Source of the DNA: an uncultured Acidobacteriota bacterium
GTDB lineage: Bacteria; Acidobacteriota; UBA6911; CAINFC01
Length of the DNA stretch: 64,000 nt
Direction of reading: 5' to 3'
NCBI GenBank assembly: GCA_964617125.1
Contig: CAZTVS010000005.1
Span: forward strand, 16,529 to 80,528
Shown here: positions 1-41,302 of the stretch, in pieces
Position numbering within the stretch: the stretch's first letter is position 1
Layout: each line of letters opens with the position of its first letter
Notes under the pieces: generated by a model
What the model saw: only the letters and a program-made list of their open reading frames with translations
What the model was told of the DNA's origin: nothing
Databases searched by the model: none
Translations under genes and position numbers: made by a program

Positions 1-906
1 CTGGAGGACCCCCAGCTGGATCAGGGGCGTCAAGGTTTCATCAAGGCCCTCGAGGAGGAAGACCTGATCGCCGGACGCGACTACACCATGAACTACCAAT
101 GCGCCCAGGGAGACCAGACCTTACTGCCGACGATCGTACAGGGCTTTTTGACCGACCGGGTACGACTTATCGCCACGAGCACTACACCCTGCATGATCGC
201 CGCGGCCAGAGGAACCATGGACCTGTCCGAACCGCCTCCCGTAGTCATCACCATCGTTACCGCCCCGGAGGAGGTTGGCATCAAACCTGTTCCTGCCAAT
301 CTGACCGGTTTTTACAGCCCGGTCGATATGCAGGAGTTTCTCCGCGTGATAACCGGCATTCTCCCCGGACCGGTCAAACGTCTGGGATTACTCACCAATC
401 CTGCCGAGGTAAACGCGGCCCATGCCGCTGCGAAACTGGCTGCGGCCTGTGAGAAAGCCGGCATCGAACTGTTTCAGGCTCCGGTCTCATCCATCAACGA
501 TATCCGGGATGCCGCTCTCTCCCTTGCCGACAGAGGCGTTCAGGCCTTGATCGGAGCTGCCGACAACACGGTGTACAACTCCATGCCCGTCCTGTCCGGC
601 ATCGCCGAGCAGCGCCGCCTGCCGATATTCGTTTCCGAAGCGGGTGTCACCCGCATGGGAGCAGCGGTGGGTTTCGGTCTGGATTATTTCGACTGGGGCT
701 ACCAAAGCGGTACGATTGCGGCTCAGCTCCTGCGGGGAAAACCTCTCTCTGAACTCCCTCTGCGGCCATGCCTGCGCAACCGGCTGTCGATCAACGAAGA
801 GGCCTGCCAAAAACAGGGTTTGCCTCTCACGCCTGCCTTGCGGGAAAAGATACGGTCCCTGTCGGTTGGCCTGAGCGGCCAATCCGATACAGGATCCGTT
901 AAGTAA
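1..906 (+). CDS. ABC transporter substrate-binding protein (COG2984/BMP-like), 5'-partial at window edge
   Basis: The frame is open from nt 1 to the stop at 904-906. The translation resembles periplasmic binding proteins of uncharacterised ABC systems (…LLTNPAEVNAAHAAAKLAAACEKAGIEL…GAADNTVYN…). Confidence 0.65.
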   Translation: MEDPQLDQGRQGFIKALEEEDLIAGRDYTMNYQCAQGDQTLLPTIVQGFLTDRVRLIATSTTPCMIAAARGTMDLSEPPPVVITIVTAPEEVGIKPVPANLTGFYSPVDMQEFLRVITGILPGPVKRLGLLTNPAEVNAAHAAAKLAAACEKAGIELFQAPVSSINDIRDAALSLADRGVQALIGAADNTVYNSMPVLSGIAEQRRLPIFVSEAGVTRMGAAVGFGLDYFDWGYQSGTIAAQLLRGKPLSELPLRPCLRNRLSINEEACQKQGLPLTPALREKIRSLSVGLSGQSDTGSVK

Positions 907-952
907 CTTCCGGGAATTCTTTCAACGTCATACTTTTCTCAAGGTATATATT

Positions 953-1822
953 ATGAATCTGCCGAAATGTGTTGTTACTCTTTGCTTTTGCCTGACACTT
1001 TTTGCTGCCGATCCTCAGGTCATCCCTCTCTACCCAGGCCCTGCTCCGGGATCCGAATCCTGGGAATGGCCGGAAACGGAACAGTCATCCACTGACGGTA
1101 TCCGGCGTATCGCCAATGTGACCCGTCCTACCATTACCGTTTATCTTCCTGAAAAGTCCAGAGCTACCGGTACCGGGGTCGTGGTGTGTCCTGGGGGCGG
1201 CTTTCGTATCCTTGCCATCAGCCACGAAGGGGAAGATGTGGCCCGGTTCCTCAACAAACAGGGTGTTGCTGCTTTTGTTCTCAAGTATCGCGTCATGCGC
1301 ACCGGCGATGAAGCAGGAAAGGACAAAGAGGTGATGGCGCGACGCCGGGCGGAGGTGATCCCGCTGAGCATAGCCGACGGGTTGGAAGCCGTTCGTCTGG
1401 TGCGCCGCCGGGCTGCCGAATGGGGCCTGCAACACAACCGCATCGGTATTATGGGTTTTTCGGCCGGAGGTTGGGTAACCACCGCCGTTACCCTACAAGG
1501 ATCGGGGGACAGCCGGCCGGATTTTGCCGCGCCAATTTACGCTGCCATGCCGGAAAACCTGTCGGTGCCGTCGCAGCCGCCACCACTTTTTCTGGTCCAT
1601 GCCGACAATGACGTTACGGTGCGTACGGAAAAAACCAGCGTTCGTCTTTACACTGCCTGGAAACAGGCCGGGGCTTCCGCCGAGCTGCATATCTATGCCC
1701 ACGGAGGACACGGATTCGGTATGCTTAAAAAATCGCTTCCGGTCGATTCTTGGGCGGATCGTTTGCGGGACTGGATGCAATCTCTGGATCTTCTATCGCC
1801 AACACCAGGAAACAGGCCGTAG
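953..1822 (+). CDS. secreted alpha/beta-hydrolase-fold esterase/lipase
   Basis: N-terminal signal peptide. Nucleophile elbow GFSAGG and an HGGHGF motif are typical of esterases, BD-FAE-like carbohydrate esterases and prolyl oligopeptidases. Confidence 0.75.
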   Translation: MNLPKCVVTLCFCLTLFAADPQVIPLYPGPAPGSESWEWPETEQSSTDGIRRIANVTRPTITVYLPEKSRATGTGVVVCPGGGFRILAISHEGEDVARFLNKQGVAAFVLKYRVMRTGDEAGKDKEVMARRRAEVIPLSIADGLEAVRLVRRRAAEWGLQHNRIGIMGFSAGGWVTTAVTLQGSGDSRPDFAAPIYAAMPENLSVPSQPPPLFLVHADNDVTVRTEKTSVRLYTAWKQAGASAELHIYAHGGHGFGMLKKSLPVDSWADRLRDWMQSLDLLSPTPGNRP

Positions 1823-1857
1823 GCAGATCCGGGACCGCCGTTCCTGTAAGGCAGAAT

Positions 1858-4278
1858 TCAATCTTTTTTTAATAGCCAGACTTCCGCCACCTGGCATCCT
1901 CTTCCGTTTACCAGATGCCAGGTCAGTTCCAGCGTACCGGCCTGGATGGCCTGTTCGGGGATGTCGAATTCCATCGGAAGCGGATCCTCCGGTCGCGGGA
2001 TGGGTCCATGGATGGCCGTCTTACCGGCAGACAACGTCATAGTCGATTGAAAACGGCCGCTGTAAATGACCCGCAGACGATAGCGCGCCCTGCGGTCCAG
2101 GCCGTCATAGCGCATGCGCAGGGGTTCTCCGAAAAGCGTCTGCGCCTGGTCCTGCCAGGATAGCCGCCAGTCCTGATTGTCGATGAATTCCTGTTGCGAA
2201 GAGGCGGTGCCGCCGGGGTCCTCTCTCCAGGACTTCTGTCGAACCAGGTGGGGAGATCTTTCCGGATTTCCCAGATCGTCATAGAATCCGCCGGGACCCG
2301 GGTCTTCCCAACCGATGATCTGCCGTATGCGACGGGACTGCTCTGCGGGGTCGGCCAGGGCCTTTATCTCCCTCCATTGGGATTCGATCCAGTCGGCATC
2401 GCTCAAAGGGTAATCGAGGGTGTCGAGAACGGCCCCCCGCTCTACGTTTCGGGCCAAATACGGAGGCAGAACGCTCAATTGAAAACCTATACCGGCAAAG
2501 AGTTCTTTTCCCAGCTGTACGATCCTGCGGCGATACGCGCTGGTCGACAGGGTTTTCCGGGTTTGTTCGTTGATGGCCTCCATTTCCTCCAGAGCGGAGG
2601 AGATCCCTGCCGGATCGGCTGTCCGCAGTCTTTGATAGATACGGGCTTCCGCCAAAGATTCCTGTTTCGCTTTTTCCTGCACGTAAGCGTCATAACAGGC
2701 CCGGAAGAGGTACATCTGCAGCCGCCAGTTTCGGTCCCTTTCCTCAGGCCGGCGATCGGCGATGCCGGTCCAAAGGGCAAGGGTTCCGGCAATACCCTGG
2801 TTTTGCAGGATCGGACCCGTCCAGTTGTCCTCCAATCGTAACAAAGCACGGCTGGCCGGTTTGGCCTCTTCCGGGTTCAGAAATACCTTGGCATACTCCT
2901 CGAGAATCGTTTCGACAGGAGAGGTGGAGTCCCATCCCAGTGCGCTCCACACGATCTTGTTGAGGTCATCATGGATCCCTTCGGAGTATGTGATGAAACC
3001 GCAGGCAAGGTCTTTATACAGATTGTGAATATGAGCCATGGCCCGAGGCCGCGGACAGACCGGCTCCCGACCCAGGGTATGGGCAAAGGCCCGGTTCCAG
3101 TCCGGAACGGGATACTGGCTGCGCAGGCAATGCGAGATGTCGGGATAGCGCCGAATAGCGTAGCGGGCGGGAATTCTTCGGCGCAATTCCGGCAGGCTGA
3201 GTTTGGTCCAGGGTCCAAATACGATGCCTTCCAGCCAGTCCGGATGCTCCCGATGCAGGAATTCGAACAGGTATTCGTTGTGTTCCGCTTCAAAGGTCTG
3301 GTTGGAAAGCCAGAGCCTGGCGCCGGGATGGACTGAGCTTAACACTCCTGAAAGTCGCTGCAGCCAGGGCAGAAGAATTTCCGGAGGAGTGTCTCCGCCA
3401 TCCCCTCCGGGAACAAATACCGCATCCAGCCGTTTCATGCTGCGAAAGAGGGCCCGCCATCGTTCCAGCTCCCTCTCGGCGAGTTCATCGGTGCCTATTT
3501 GAGACACGTATACCGGTATCCAGCACCACACATCCAGCCCGTAAGAATCCAGCAGGGCAGACAGCCGCATATTCATGTCCCACATGGAGAGTTTCATCAG
3601 GGGTGTCCTGGGCTCCGTAGGATCCAGGGTGGGAACGAGTTCGATGGCATTGGTGCCGAAAAGAATCAGATCGCGAAGATACTGCTCGAAGGCGGATTCA
3701 TCCCAGGCGTCGTAACTATTGGGCGTACCACGATAGCCGAGCTGATGTCCCCGAATGGGGATTTCAGGTGCGGTTGCCAGAGCCATTTGTGCCGGGAAAA
3801 ACAACCCATTCATTTTCATTTCCGCCAGCCGCAGAAAACGGCCGGCGGCAAACAGGACGCCTCGTGGATCGTAGCCCAGGAGACAGATCCGGGAATTCTT
3901 TGGATCGGACCAGATGGCATACGCATCTTTTTTGTGCGGCAGAGAAAGACTGCCCGGCGGTTTTGCGTCCGAAGCGAGGCGCGCAGCCGTGGCCAGAAGG
4001 ATGAGAGGCGTCTTTTCCCGGGAGGGGAAAGATTTCTCCATGGTCAGAGCGATGTGGGTGCGTCTTTGAATTTCCTCCTGCAGCATCTGTGCCGCCTTGA
4101 CGACAATGGCATTCGATCCGTTAAAGAAAATCTTTGCCTGTGAAAGATCGATGGAAGTCCGGGAGTCGTCTCCTGCCTGCATTCCTTTAGCGAAAATATT
4201 CTGCATGGGCAAAAGGGCGAAGAGGAGGGAAAAAACCGGTACGATGGTTCTGTGGTCGGACAGGAGCAATTTTCGCAT
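1858..4278 (-). CDS. secreted glycoside hydrolase, family uncertain (possibly alpha-glucuronidase-like GH115/GH67/GH20-fold)
   Basis: 806-aa product from the ATG at 4278 (MRKLLLSDHRTIVPVFSLLFALLPMQNIFA is a signal peptide). Motifs RGHQLGYRGTPNSYDAWD and VFVPGGDGGD suggest a GH TIM-barrel. Family assignment is from memory only. Confidence 0.55.
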   Translation of the reverse strand: MRKLLLSDHRTIVPVFSLLFALLPMQNIFAKGMQAGDDSRTSIDLSQAKIFFNGSNAIVVKAAQMLQEEIQRRTHIALTMEKSFPSREKTPLILLATAARLASDAKPPGSLSLPHKKDAYAIWSDPKNSRICLLGYDPRGVLFAAGRFLRLAEMKMNGLFFPAQMALATAPEIPIRGHQLGYRGTPNSYDAWDESAFEQYLRDLILFGTNAIELVPTLDPTEPRTPLMKLSMWDMNMRLSALLDSYGLDVWCWIPVYVSQIGTDELAERELERWRALFRSMKRLDAVFVPGGDGGDTPPEILLPWLQRLSGVLSSVHPGARLWLSNQTFEAEHNEYLFEFLHREHPDWLEGIVFGPWTKLSLPELRRRIPARYAIRRYPDISHCLRSQYPVPDWNRAFAHTLGREPVCPRPRAMAHIHNLYKDLACGFITYSEGIHDDLNKIVWSALGWDSTSPVETILEEYAKVFLNPEEAKPASRALLRLEDNWTGPILQNQGIAGTLALWTGIADRRPEERDRNWRLQMYLFRACYDAYVQEKAKQESLAEARIYQRLRTADPAGISSALEEMEAINEQTRKTLSTSAYRRRIVQLGKELFAGIGFQLSVLPPYLARNVERGAVLDTLDYPLSDADWIESQWREIKALADPAEQSRRIRQIIGWEDPGPGGFYDDLGNPERSPHLVRQKSWREDPGGTASSQQEFIDNQDWRLSWQDQAQTLFGEPLRMRYDGLDRRARYRLRVIYSGRFQSTMTLSAGKTAIHGPIPRPEDPLPMEFDIPEQAIQAGTLELTWHLVNGRGCQVAEVWLLKKD

Positions 4279-4491
4279 ATTACCTTCGGCTTTAATGGTA
4301 GCGCTGCACCTCTTACGCAAACAGGTGCTCGGCGGAAATGCATGGAATCGATCGATGCAATACGGCATAAAGATACCGTGGAGACGGAAGGCTCATCAAG
4401 CCGTGAGGGAATATTGTTACAGATGGGTCTTGCCTGTCGTTCTCTTAATGAATATCATTGACCCATATCATATCTGACAAGGAAGGCATCT

Positions 4492-10034: not shown

Positions 10035-10130
10035 GTAAAAAAGTCCTTGTTTTGTTTCTTTTCGATGAATCCGTATGGATTCGAAAGATGTTGCCGGCGG
10101 GACGCCGGCGCTCCCAGGGCTTTTTATCGG
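10035..10130 (+). mobile_element. degraded third copy of the 110-bp MITE-like repeat (see 40136..40245 and 41152..41261)
   Basis: Shares the core …GTTTCTTTTCG…TTGCCGGCGGGACGCCGGCGCTCCCAGG(G/A)CTTTTTA… with the other two copies. The terminal inverted repeats are decayed and no clear target duplication remains. Confidence 0.6.
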
Positions 10131-10150
10131 AGCATAAAAAATATGGGGGG

Positions 10151-29914: not shown

Positions 29915-30175
29915 CTATAGTTATAACCGAAGAATTGACAAAGAGTTATATTCAAAAAATGAGGAGAGATTATAGCATAAAAATTGCTTGAAACCAAGCA
30001 AAGAAAGCTATTCCGCGGACACAGAGGTACGCATCAACAACGGAAAAACAACAGACAATTTGCGGATAGAAACAGGGTTTAGAATGGATCCGATTTCGTG
30101 TCGATTCGAAAGGGATTGCCGGCAGGATGCCAGCGATCCCAGGATCTTTCGCGAGGCCAACCGATTTCGATTTCT

Positions 30176-40106: not shown

Positions 40107-40135
40107 AAAACAATTGGAAAAACCGATTCAGGGAT

Positions 40136-40245
40136 GACGAAGCGGTAAAAAGTCCTGGGAGCGCCGGCGTCCCGCCGGCAAAAGCAATGGAATCAACACG
40201 AGATTTGCGAAAAGAAACGGAACAAAGACTTTTTGCCGCTTCGTC
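40136..40245 (-). mobile_element. 110-bp MITE-like element (copy B) with 21-bp TIRs and 6-bp flanking direct repeat AGGGAT
   Basis: The left end GACGAAGCGGTAAAAAGTC is the reverse complement of the right end GACTTTTTGCCGCTTCGTC. The internal hairpin is GCCGGCGGGACGCCGGC. AGGGAT occurs at 40130-40135 and again at 40246-40251. Confidence 0.75.
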
Positions 40246-40534
40246 AGGGATGGTGCAGGCGGACGATGGTTGCGCCCCAGTGTCCCCTCTCCGGGGGCGC
40301 TTCATAATAATCGGCAACCATGTCCAACCGGGACAAAACCTTCCATACGAGGGAACGCAATACTCCTGTGCCCTTGCCGTGGATGATACGGACTTCCGGG
40401 ATATTCCGGCGGCGGCATTCCAGCAGATATTCCTCTACCAAGGAGGCAACTTCCCCGGGCTGAAAGGTATGCAGATCCAGAGAATCGCCAATGGGCACGA
40501 CTACGGCCGCATCTTCCCTGCTTTCCGGATTCAT
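40244..40534 (-). CDS. small Smr-domain protein (standalone Smr/MutS2-C-like nuclease domain)
   Basis: …LDLHTFQPGEVASLVEEYLLECRRRNIPEVRIIHGKGTGVLRSLVWKVLS… is the Smr signature. The ATG at 40534 immediately follows the stop of the upstream gene (TAAcATG). The stop codon straddles the repeat-element/TSD junction. The ORF track offers an alternative start at 40588. Confidence 0.65.
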   Translation of the reverse strand: MNPESREDAAVVVPIGDSLDLHTFQPGEVASLVEEYLLECRRRNIPEVRIIHGKGTGVLRSLVWKVLSRLDMVADYYEAPPERGHWGATIVRLHHP

Positions 40535-40535
40535 G

Positions 40536-41072
40536 TTAAAAGGAGCTCTTTTTCCCTCCACAGAGAACAATGAGGCGGCGCAGCGCATTGATTAAGCGTT
40601 GCCCGTCATCCCCTTCCGGACGGATGACGATATCCAGATGATCCTTTTTGATGGATCCGTTCAGGGTGACCGCCGGATTACGATTGGTTGCCTGGATGAT
40701 CAGGGTTCGTTCCCGGCCAAGAGAGAGGGGATCTCCGGGCATCACCCTGAGCTCGATCTGTTCCGGATCCAGGACGTTCAGGGGGGCCGTCCACTGGAAT
40801 TTTTTCTCCGTCAGTGCCCCGGGATTACGTCGGTGGGTTACGTTGATGGTGCAATTCTCGATGGAAACGGCCACTGTCGCATCATAATACGATACGGTAG
40901 AAATGATTTGCGGATTCCATTGAGCGTTCAGGCTGTTCACCAGAAAATCGATCGTCTCCTTCTGTGAAGGTTCGGTGGAGGCCTGATCACCGTGATGGCA
41001 GGCCGGAGAAGCCATAAGGAGAAGAGAGAAGAGGAGGGACATCCTCAGGGATACGTTTTTTAGCGCGAACAT
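40536..41072 (-). CDS. hypothetical secreted protein (co-cistronic with the Smr gene)
   Basis: The ATG at 41072 is preceded by GAGG. A signal peptide (…SLLFSLLLMASPA) is followed by an approximately 150-aa domain with no recognised family. The ORF track begins at a TTG at 41117. Confidence 0.5.
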   Translation of the reverse strand: MFALKNVSLRMSLLFSLLLMASPACHHGDQASTEPSQKETIDFLVNSLNAQWNPQIISTVSYYDATVAVSIENCTINVTHRRNPGALTEKKFQWTAPLNVLDPEQIELRVMPGDPLSLGRERTLIIQATNRNPAVTLNGSIKKDHLDIVIRPEGDDGQRLINALRRLIVLCGGKKSSF

Positions 41073-41151
41073 AGCATTACCTCTGAGAAAGAAGAGAAAA
41101 CGAATAAGAAAAACCAATCATCCTCGCGATAAATCGATAACTGGTATTCAT

Positions 41152-41261
41152 GACGGCCCGGCAAAAAGTCTTTATTCCGTTTCTTTTCGTAAATTCCGTG
41201 TTGATTCCATTGTTTTTGCCGGCGGGACGCCGGCGCTCCCAGGACTTTTTACCGGGCCGTC
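41152..41261 (+). mobile_element. 110-bp MITE-like element (copy C) with 21-bp TIRs and 6-bp flanking direct repeat ATTCAT
   Basis: The left end GACGGCCCGGCAAAAAGTC is the reverse complement of the right end GACTTTTTACCGGGCCGTC. ATTCAT occurs at 41146-41151 and 41262-41267. The internal 70 bp are about 95% identical to the reverse complement of copy B. Confidence 0.75.
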
Positions 41262-41302
41262 ATTCATTATAATCACTTCAATACGAAAGCGTAAGGCAGA
41301 GA

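Follow-up and report, generated by a model that had tools for sequence, protein, structure and literature searches.

Mirrored terminal arms in a 112-bp miniature transposon of an uncultured acidobacterium probably reflect concerted evolution of transposon ends

A 112-bp element inserted twice in an oriC region

The stretch of DNA analysed here (the window; 64,000 nt of contig CAZTVS010000005.1 from an uncultured acidobacterium) is an oriC region that contains two complete copies, B and C, of a 112-bp repeat. Copy B lies between convergent HIT and Smr genes, and copy C, in the opposite orientation, lies between a divergent open reading frame (ORF) and an MFS transporter gene. Both are insertions of a non-coding, non-autonomous transposon, that is, a miniature inverted-repeat transposable element (MITE); the only ORFs called over the repeat are spurious. 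A repeat finder detects B and C as inverted copies of one repeat with 118-nt arms that are 89% complementary, and BLAST aligns them with 94.8% identity over 96 nt. The coordinates of the copies and their parts are collected in Table 1.

Within each copy, the repeat finder identifies terminal arms of 20-21 nt that are 95% complementary; once the TG/CA tips are counted, the stem is 20 bp long in both. The arms of B are TGACGAAGCGGTAAAAAGTC … GACTTTTTGCCGCTTCGTCA, and those of C, read on the minus strand, are TGACGGCCCGGTAAAAAGTC … GACTTTTTGCCGGGCCGTCA. The left arms differ by three adjacent bases, AAG in B versus GCC in C, and the partner arms carry the complementary difference, CTT in B and GGC in C (element orientation; GCC on the plus strand). 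The first-pass annotation of this DNA, which pointed out that three substitutions are mirrored exactly between the arms, is borne out on this point, as is its statement that an inner hairpin is retained: GCCGGCG-TCC-CGCCGGC, with a 7-bp stem, is present in B, in C, and in a diverged third copy, A. Its description of the outer stem as perfect is inaccurate, however, because B and C share a T·G mismatch at position 12 of the arm (positions are counted from the T of the TGAC tip). The 72-nt interiors of B and C differ at about 7% of positions; given this level of difference, three independent hits at partner positions with complementary bases have, by our own estimate, P ~1e-5, and thus the mirroring of the triplet is not due to chance.

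Both B and C have 5'-TG…CA-3' termini, with a 4-bp target-site duplication (TSD) on either side. Among the eight full copies of the local family (see below), five have perfect TSDs that differ from one another: GGGA for B, TGAA for C, GTCA for F, GTAA for G, and GGAA for J. The TG…CA ends, the 20-bp terminal inverted repeats (TIRs), and the 4-bp TSDs argue for staggered-cut insertion by a DDE-type transposase, which is presumably supplied in trans and is itself unseen. An integron attC site was considered and rejected, since the R''/R' core sites and a cassette context are lacking. (The insertion point of B is the stop codon of the Smr-domain gene, at 40244-40250, …CCC|TGA on the minus strand; the TGA is restored by the TGAC tip of the element, and the Smr protein is unchanged.)

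Table 1. Location of the element copies, their parts, and related features. Coordinates are those of the window unless a contig is named; arm mismatches are counted over the 19 positions after the T/A tip.
Feature	Location	Strand	Description
Copy B	40135..40246	+	Complete 112-bp MITE, TGAC…GTCA ends; nhmmer 116.6 bits; 1 arm mismatch (position 12)
Left TSD of B (GGGA)	40131..40134	.	Right copy 40247-40250
B left arm	40135..40154	+	Tip TGAC, variable block GAAGCG, then G-T-AAAAAGTC inner box; triplet AAG at 40140-40142
REP-like unit in B	40155..40179	+	Head CTGGGAGC and hairpin GCCGGCG-TCC-CGCCGGC
B right arm GACTTTTTGCCGCTTCGTCA	40227..40246	+	Triplet CTT at 40239-40241; minus-strand TGA is the Smr stop codon
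Copy C	41151..41262	-	Complete 112-bp MITE, orientation opposite to B; nhmmer 118.7 bits; 1 arm mismatch (position 12)
TSD of C (TTCA on + strand; TGAA in element orientation)	41147..41150	.	Second copy 41263-41266
C left arm TGACGGCCCGGTAAAAAGTC (element orientation)	41243..41262	-	Triplet GCC at 41255-41257
REP-like unit in C	41218..41242	-	
C right arm (element orientation)	41151..41170	-	TGACGGCCCGGCAAAAAGTC on + strand; mirrored triplet 41156-41158
Copy A	10037..10132	-	A/F subfamily, diverged; REP unit intact, outer arms decayed and non-complementary; 77.6 bits
REP unit match in copy A	10093-10111		
Relic	30093..30151	-	Armless; degenerate REP unit and some of the interior; 25 nt past dnaN stop
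Copy D	L121		4 arm mismatches (GAAGCG vs GGTCCG)
Copy F	L121		1 arm mismatch (position 5)
Copy G	L122		1 arm mismatch (position 10)
Copy H	L123		1 arm mismatch
Copy I	L124		0 arm mismatches
Copy J	L124 (9389-9498)		5 arm mismatches (GAAGCC vs GACCCG)

A hypervariable block between two invariant boxes

Three segments make up the arm: the invariant tip TGAC, a hypervariable 6-nt (N6) block, and the invariant inner box G-Y-AAAAAGTC. Nucleotide diversity is 0 in the TGAC/GTCA tips and 0.018 in the AAAAAGTC inner box, but 0.26-0.29 in the 6-nt block; it is 0.075 in the inner repetitive extragenic palindromic (REP) unit described below and 0.088 in the rest of the unpaired interior. The mirrored triplet is located in the N6 block and therefore occupies the most variable part of the element, not a conserved stem.

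A metagenome scan that used the arm frame with the block left free (TGACNNNNNNGYAAAAAGTC-N60-90-GACTTTTTRCNNNNNNGTCA) yielded 75 loci (L125-L199) having the frame TGAC-N6-G-Y-AAAAAGTC. These represent 61 distinct elements of 100-128 bp, which fall into at least 22 groups with unrelated interiors; most of the families that share the arms do not contain the REP unit. Of 60 elements, 30 have the same 4 bp on both sides, whereas shuffled flanks give an average of 1.7 and a maximum of 8, which confirms both the target-site duplication and the TGAC…GTCA limits of the element. (A 6-bp TSD with GAC…GTC ends, suggested by a local A-NNNN-T reading, was rejected, as the metagenome elements show a 4-bp TSD and TGAC…GTCA ends.) No description of the arm sequences was found in the searchable literature; thus, the superfamily may be unnamed, although its kind is familiar.

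Co-variation between the arms

The first-pass annotation took the mirrored substitutions to indicate selection, or repair, acting on a long hairpin, a reading that leaves little room for non-compensated mismatches in further copies. Such mismatches are, for the most part, what further copies exhibit. Perfect arms are found in just one of the eight full local copies, five have one mismatch, and two have four or five (D and J, Table 1); relics have lost arms. In the alignment of the eight copies, 94% of cells are paired and five pairs have changed on both sides, but among the cells of the outer helix that depart from the consensus, 12 are unpaired compared to 6 that are compensated and 2 that form a wobble. 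The position-12 pair occurs in all four states (T/C, C/T, T/T, and C/C). In the 61 distinct metagenome elements, 119 of 366 block cells are not Watson-Crick pairs (247 are; 83 mismatches are transitions and 36 transversions), and sublineages with 3-4 block mismatches have inserted at several loci, some with TSDs of their own. In particular, a 112-nt metagenome family contains the arms AATCTC/GGTTTC, which differ by three transitions and were seen five times, and the arms TCATTC/AAGCTC, which include two transversions and are present on four contigs, two with clear TSDs of their own. In this family asymmetric arms dominate, and there is no excess of mirrored differences (16 versus 20.9).

Nevertheless, the arms do not vary independently. 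For the local family, covariation is 0.090 versus 0.052±0.012 in shuffles, and 12 mirrored differences are found where 5.2 are expected (P≈0.065). For the superfamily, covariation is 0.167 versus 0.081±0.007 when shuffled, and slid controls do not exceed 0.065; double-changed cells number 72 versus 29.5±5.3 in shuffles, while 76 of 288 block cells (26%; G·T counted as paired, identical arm rows merged) are unpaired. The mean number of block mismatches in a metagenome element is 1.95, compared to 3.09 with random partners. In a 126-nt family, exactly mirrored differences number 29 versus 6.5 (P=0.013). Co-variation of the arms above controls is thus significant in the superfamily and in one family, and only suggestive locally. 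Pairing of the block is not required for the element to spread, yet the arms are not independent. The part of the earlier reading that stands is that the mirrored substitutions are non-random; selection on a long hairpin has not been established. (A strand-specific G·U signal was also considered and rejected: transitions are mildly enriched, 83:36 versus 1.5:1 at random, but the strand is inconsistent.)

The inner unit and its relation to REP/RAYT systems

The inner unit of the element is a REP, consisting of a conserved head and a GC-rich hairpin. The inner 23-mer GGGAGCGCCGGCGTCCCGCCGGC is present unchanged at more than 118 genome loci (among them L001-L118), often in multiple copies, often as inverted doublets, and with compensated variants of the stem; likewise, CCTGGGAGC followed by GCCGGCG-TCY-CGCCGGC is found at more than 118 loci. 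The hosts of the 23-mer include Acidobacteriota, Verrucomicrobiota, Planctomycetota, Alpha- and Gammaproteobacteria, and others. A REP unit that is identical across phyla is unusual, and mis-binning of metagenome-assembled genomes (MAGs) could inflate this spread. None of the 118 listed 23-mer loci contains an element of the B/C type, and literature searches for the REP string returned nothing relevant.

One of these loci (L034, from a MAG of another organism) contains a gene for a REP-associated tyrosine transposase (RAYT), which matches NF047646, the NCBIfam model for this protein, with 109.7 bits (cut-off 80), and which has clusters of the unit on both sides. A second RAYT is present at L067; here there is no exact unit within 400 nt, and units are located about 0.5 kb or more downstream. 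In a motif scan, no RAYT-like ORF was seen in the window or in the contigs L119-L124 of the same population. The REP is a passenger or module of the local MITE family, given that the unit is missing from most of the families sharing these arms. The 112-bp element contains one REP unit and no inverted doublet, and its long stem is formed by arms that are unrelated to REP.

Among the local copies, a compensated variant of the REP hairpin, GCCGGCA-TCT-TGCCGGC, in which the closing G-C has changed to A-T, is present in copy J and at L201 490-596, and copy D has an uncompensated A·C at the base of this stem. The CGTC-tagged REPs (PMC3733652) were considered as relatives and rejected: in those, the stem is 8-9 bp long and the CGTC tag is left unpaired, but in the present element this tetranucleotide takes part in pairing and is the tip of the transposon.

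How the arms may come to mirror each other

We consider it probable that the mirrored triplet reflects concerted evolution of the ends of a transposon and not selection by the host for a hairpin of RNA or DNA; for RNA in particular, such selection is unlikely. By comparison with IS3-type ends, cleavage would be assigned to the tip and transposase binding to the inner box; separate cleavage and protein-binding domains are known for the ends of insertion sequences (ISs) (PMC3299598). The N6 block between them is probably a weakly constrained spacer that changes several bases at a time. It would then tend to be made alike in both arms by arm-to-arm copying when the element is folded back during replication. 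The copying step would probably be template switching in a quasi-palindrome, through which a multi-base "compensatory" change would arise in one event. Template switching has been found to homogenise the arms of inverted repeats and to yield multi-base compensatory changes (PMC8794818, PMC8604942, and PMC7202029). Lineage sorting would add to this process, since descendants would come only from masters that still transpose. The "or repair" option of the first-pass annotation is in this sense retained, arm-to-arm copying on a fold-back being our preferred source of multi-base mirrored change.

Several points weigh against this interpretation. The arm-to-arm copying is inferred from the pattern and was not observed, and copying alone leaves unexplained why the diversity of the block is three times that of the interior. 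Since the T·G at position 12 survived in both B and C, the copying tract must have been short. The local sample is small, with 6 distinct arm pairs and the P value given above. Copies D, J, H, and I were assembled from short metagenome reads and could be chimeric, although the arrangement of D and J was independently repeated. Finally, about 200 fetched loci yielded no autonomous element bounded by such ends. Arm pairs in these loci are at most about 310 bp apart, except where they belong to neighbouring separate elements; of four wider pairs, two enclose host-like ORFs (on which no transposase domain scan was run) and two span known adjacent copies. No autonomous partner of the superfamily was seen in L125-L199, and a search of a plasmid collection gave nothing relevant.

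A different explanation for alike arms is that the block is read by the transposase, so that AAG- and NCC-type arms are served by two transposase specificities (or by one that is evolving) and the two ends of an element must match. The first-pass annotation held that a protein-recognised TIR would not predict mirroring, but this is wrong in principle: in IS families the left and right repeats of one element are generally alike and differ between relatives, and the TSDs and TG…CA tips mark the present ends as substrates of a transposase. The tendency of metagenome families to have a block sequence of their own in both arms also fits such matching. A block whose diversity is three times that of the interior, however, is unlike a specificity determinant within one genome; in addition, mixed AAG/NCC copies are present at two loci, and sublineages with 3-4 arm mismatches have spread. 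Matching through transposase specificity is therefore rather unlikely as the source of the mirrored triplet.

It is also conceivable, though we would not expect it, that the block is kept in register by copying that depends on base pairing and is part of the transposition cycle of the superfamily. Such copying might, for example, take place at the palindrome formed where the two ends of a circular or fold-back intermediate meet. If this were true, a TSD-forming TG…CA element would read part of its ends as structure, and each lineage would have a private "arm code".

Still more doubtful is the idea that structure is the substrate of mobilisation itself, that is, that a single-stranded DNA (ssDNA) hairpin is moved and its pairing selected, as for REPINs mobilised by RAYT, an HUH tyrosine transposase. 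The predicted ssDNA folds of B and C have energies of -29.2 and -29.1 kcal/mol, and strong folding (z -4.4 to -7.3) is predicted for B, C, F, G, H, and I. Compensatory changes across REPIN hairpins are reported to be common (PMC3116915), REP dimers within longer palindromes are known (PMC3733652), and the exact REP unit sequence of the element flanks the RAYT gene of L034. Yet the element has a single REP unit instead of an inverted doublet, the unit is absent from most metagenome families that share its arms, no RAYT-like ORF was seen in the window or in L119-L124, and lineages with unpaired blocks have propagated. Moreover, the flanks contain variable 4-bp duplications, and insertion of the IS200/IS605 type or of the RAYT type is not known to produce TSDs.

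A host-level structured RNA, such as a hairpin in a 3' untranslated region that stabilises or terminates a transcript, or a small RNA, would have its pairing maintained by purifying selection. The predicted RNA hairpins of B and C are indeed strong (-49.1 and -52.3 kcal/mol; z -4.5 and -5.6), the strand that carries the REP in forward orientation is the sense strand of neighbouring genes in six of the seven placeable copies, and the mismatch at position 12 can be read as G·U in B and C. The remaining evidence disagrees with such a function. There is no Rfam match at gathering score in the window, and around the elements only chance-level matches appear up to E = 10; a scan of the elements found no consensus promoter or terminator, and no T-tract follows the stem. 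(An intrinsic terminator was considered separately and rejected: A's rather than T's come after the inner hairpin, and no such terminator was detected when the elements were scanned.) Copy C lies between divergent genes. The polarity of the wobble is inconsistent between copies, with the single mismatch being G·T on one strand in B and C but on the opposite strand in F, G, and H. Decay and arm loss in the copies are uncompensated, and the interiors are unrelated between families that share the arms. A structured RNA is thus very unlikely to underlie the pairing, and nothing points to the transcript that the first-pass annotation offered as one possible carrier of the long hairpin.

The least probable explanation is the absence of any coupling, with B and C derived from two masters whose arms were symmetric by chance or being assembly or recombination mosaics: arm type does partly follow the haplotype group of the interior, the permutation test on the local copies reaches only P≈0.065, and contigs fork at the repeat, but symmetric masters would themselves have to be explained, the superfamily as a whole has a mirrored excess above shuffled and slid controls, and the window agrees on copy B with L119, a JGI contig of the same locus.

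Relation to known elements

The element resembles the bacterial MITEs that derive from DDE ISs (such as Correia, ERIC/IRU, and RUP-type) in its length (about 100-130 bp), its lack of coding capacity, its TIRs, TG…CA tips, and short TSDs, and, likewise, in its many intergenic copies and its ability to fold into a long hairpin. It differs from them in several respects. A parent IS with these ends was not found in the roughly 200 fetched loci; the arm has a hypervariable 6-nt block between two invariant boxes, which is unusual; the local family carries a REP unit; and copies form pile-ups with nothing but ATTCC(T) between them. By its tip and TSD length, the nearest family may be IS3, IS407 group. 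The TG…CA termini and 4-bp duplications shared with the IS407 group of IS3 are also those of other DDE families, and consequently this is only a lead.

The inner unit is like the REPs of REPIN and REP-RAYT systems in its conserved head and GC-rich 7-bp hairpin, in the RAYT gene that units flank in L034, and in the inverted doublets found in many genomes. For REPINs, compensatory changes across the hairpin arms have been described (Bertels & Rainey 2011, PMC3116915), and for REPs, alternative complementary stem residues, G·T pairs, and nesting in larger palindromes (Di Nocera et al. 2013, PMC3733652). The 112-bp element differs from REPINs in that it has a single REP, outer arms unrelated to REP, and TSDs, and in that most of the families with the same arms are REP-less.

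Template switching in quasi-palindromes (PMC8794818, PMC8604942, and PMC7202029) explains simultaneous changes of several adjacent bases in two arms, homogenisation of arms, and a possible inversion of the spacer relative to the arms. The term denotes a mutational process of general occurrence, not an element family, and its action here is suggested by the pattern alone.

These comparisons have practical consequences. In annotation, such repeats should be masked as MITEs and not taken for RNA genes; metagenome assemblies break at them, and short spurious ORFs are called over them. As to method, two copies with mirrored changes are insufficient to infer selection on a stem, because the ends of transposons co-vary for other reasons and one template switch can mirror several bases. 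Given complete genomes, a survey may be deserved of the arm layout shared by at least 22 families with unrelated interiors in environmental metagenomes, of the strictness of block mirroring, which varies from family to family, and of the REP unit with the same 23-mer in several phyla.

Further copies and neighbouring features

Additional copies were located through the spurious ORFs of 39-76 aa that gene callers place over the repeat (P0001-P0004 and P0007-P0009); the contigs were fetched and then searched with a profile. Together, the window and six contigs from two samples contain 8 full copies of the family and 5 that are decayed or relics. The window accounts for two full copies and two relics, and nine more copies or relics are on other contigs of the same population, including a nearly full copy on L201 and a relic on L200, both with degraded arms. 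A metagenome scan with a 23-mer from the junction gave no match, the collection evidently being without JGI metagenome 3300022666, in which copy B is also contained. The organism is represented in SRR6476076 as well.

Three arm lineages can be distinguished: NCC/NCC (C and F), AAG/AAG (B, G, H, and I), and mixed AAG/NCC (D and J). The interiors form the haplotype groups {B,G}, {C,D,J}, and {H,I}, with F nearest to C, D, and J. Copies D and J are on different contigs and have the same mixed arrangement of arms, which speaks for their being genuine and for an element that was still mobile with blocks that did not match, as far as two copies on short-read contigs allow. Copies H and I share one flank (L123 8021-8184 and L124 1-164) and thus represent an assembly fork, not independent copies. 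Once inserted, copies decay through single uncompensated transitions and through arms that are lost or deleted.

At the locus of copies B and C, L119 represents the same population and is 99.8-99.9% identical to the window. In L119, 31 bp of copy C, including a whole arm, are missing (window 41148-41178; L119 1794/1795); L119 further differs by a T-to-A change in the REP head and by two additional T's. Either the population contains this variant, or the assembly has gone wrong at the hairpin. Short-read assemblies break or fork inside the repeat; L120, for example, ends at window position 40163.

In copies B, C, D, G, H, and J, the strand with the REP in forward orientation is also sense for the adjacent genes, with copy F as the exception; this hint of an orientation bias is weak (about P=0.06). 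Copy F is 21 nt upstream of the start of a Nif11 gene. The contig of D, E, and F (L121) encodes, at 606-4307, a LanM-like lanthipeptide synthetase (DUF4135 and LANC_like) with a Nif11-type precursor. Element E (L121 4826-4984), which adjoins D, is a different palindromic element with the arms TGATGACCTCGCAAAAAGTC; inside it are two inverted GTAG-type hairpins, GTAGTTCCGCC-TTTA-GGCGG and GTAGTTCCGCG-TTTA-CGCGG, that differ by a compensated C/G pair.

Finally, elements with the arm frame form head-to-tail pile-ups with no more than ATTCC(T) between them (L124 165-444 and 9075-9503, L123 8186-8210, and L121 4977-4988). These include the foldback elements M and M2 (275 bp and 309 bp) and solo arms, and suggest either insertion beside resident ends or a strong target preference (local targets are A-GKMA-T).

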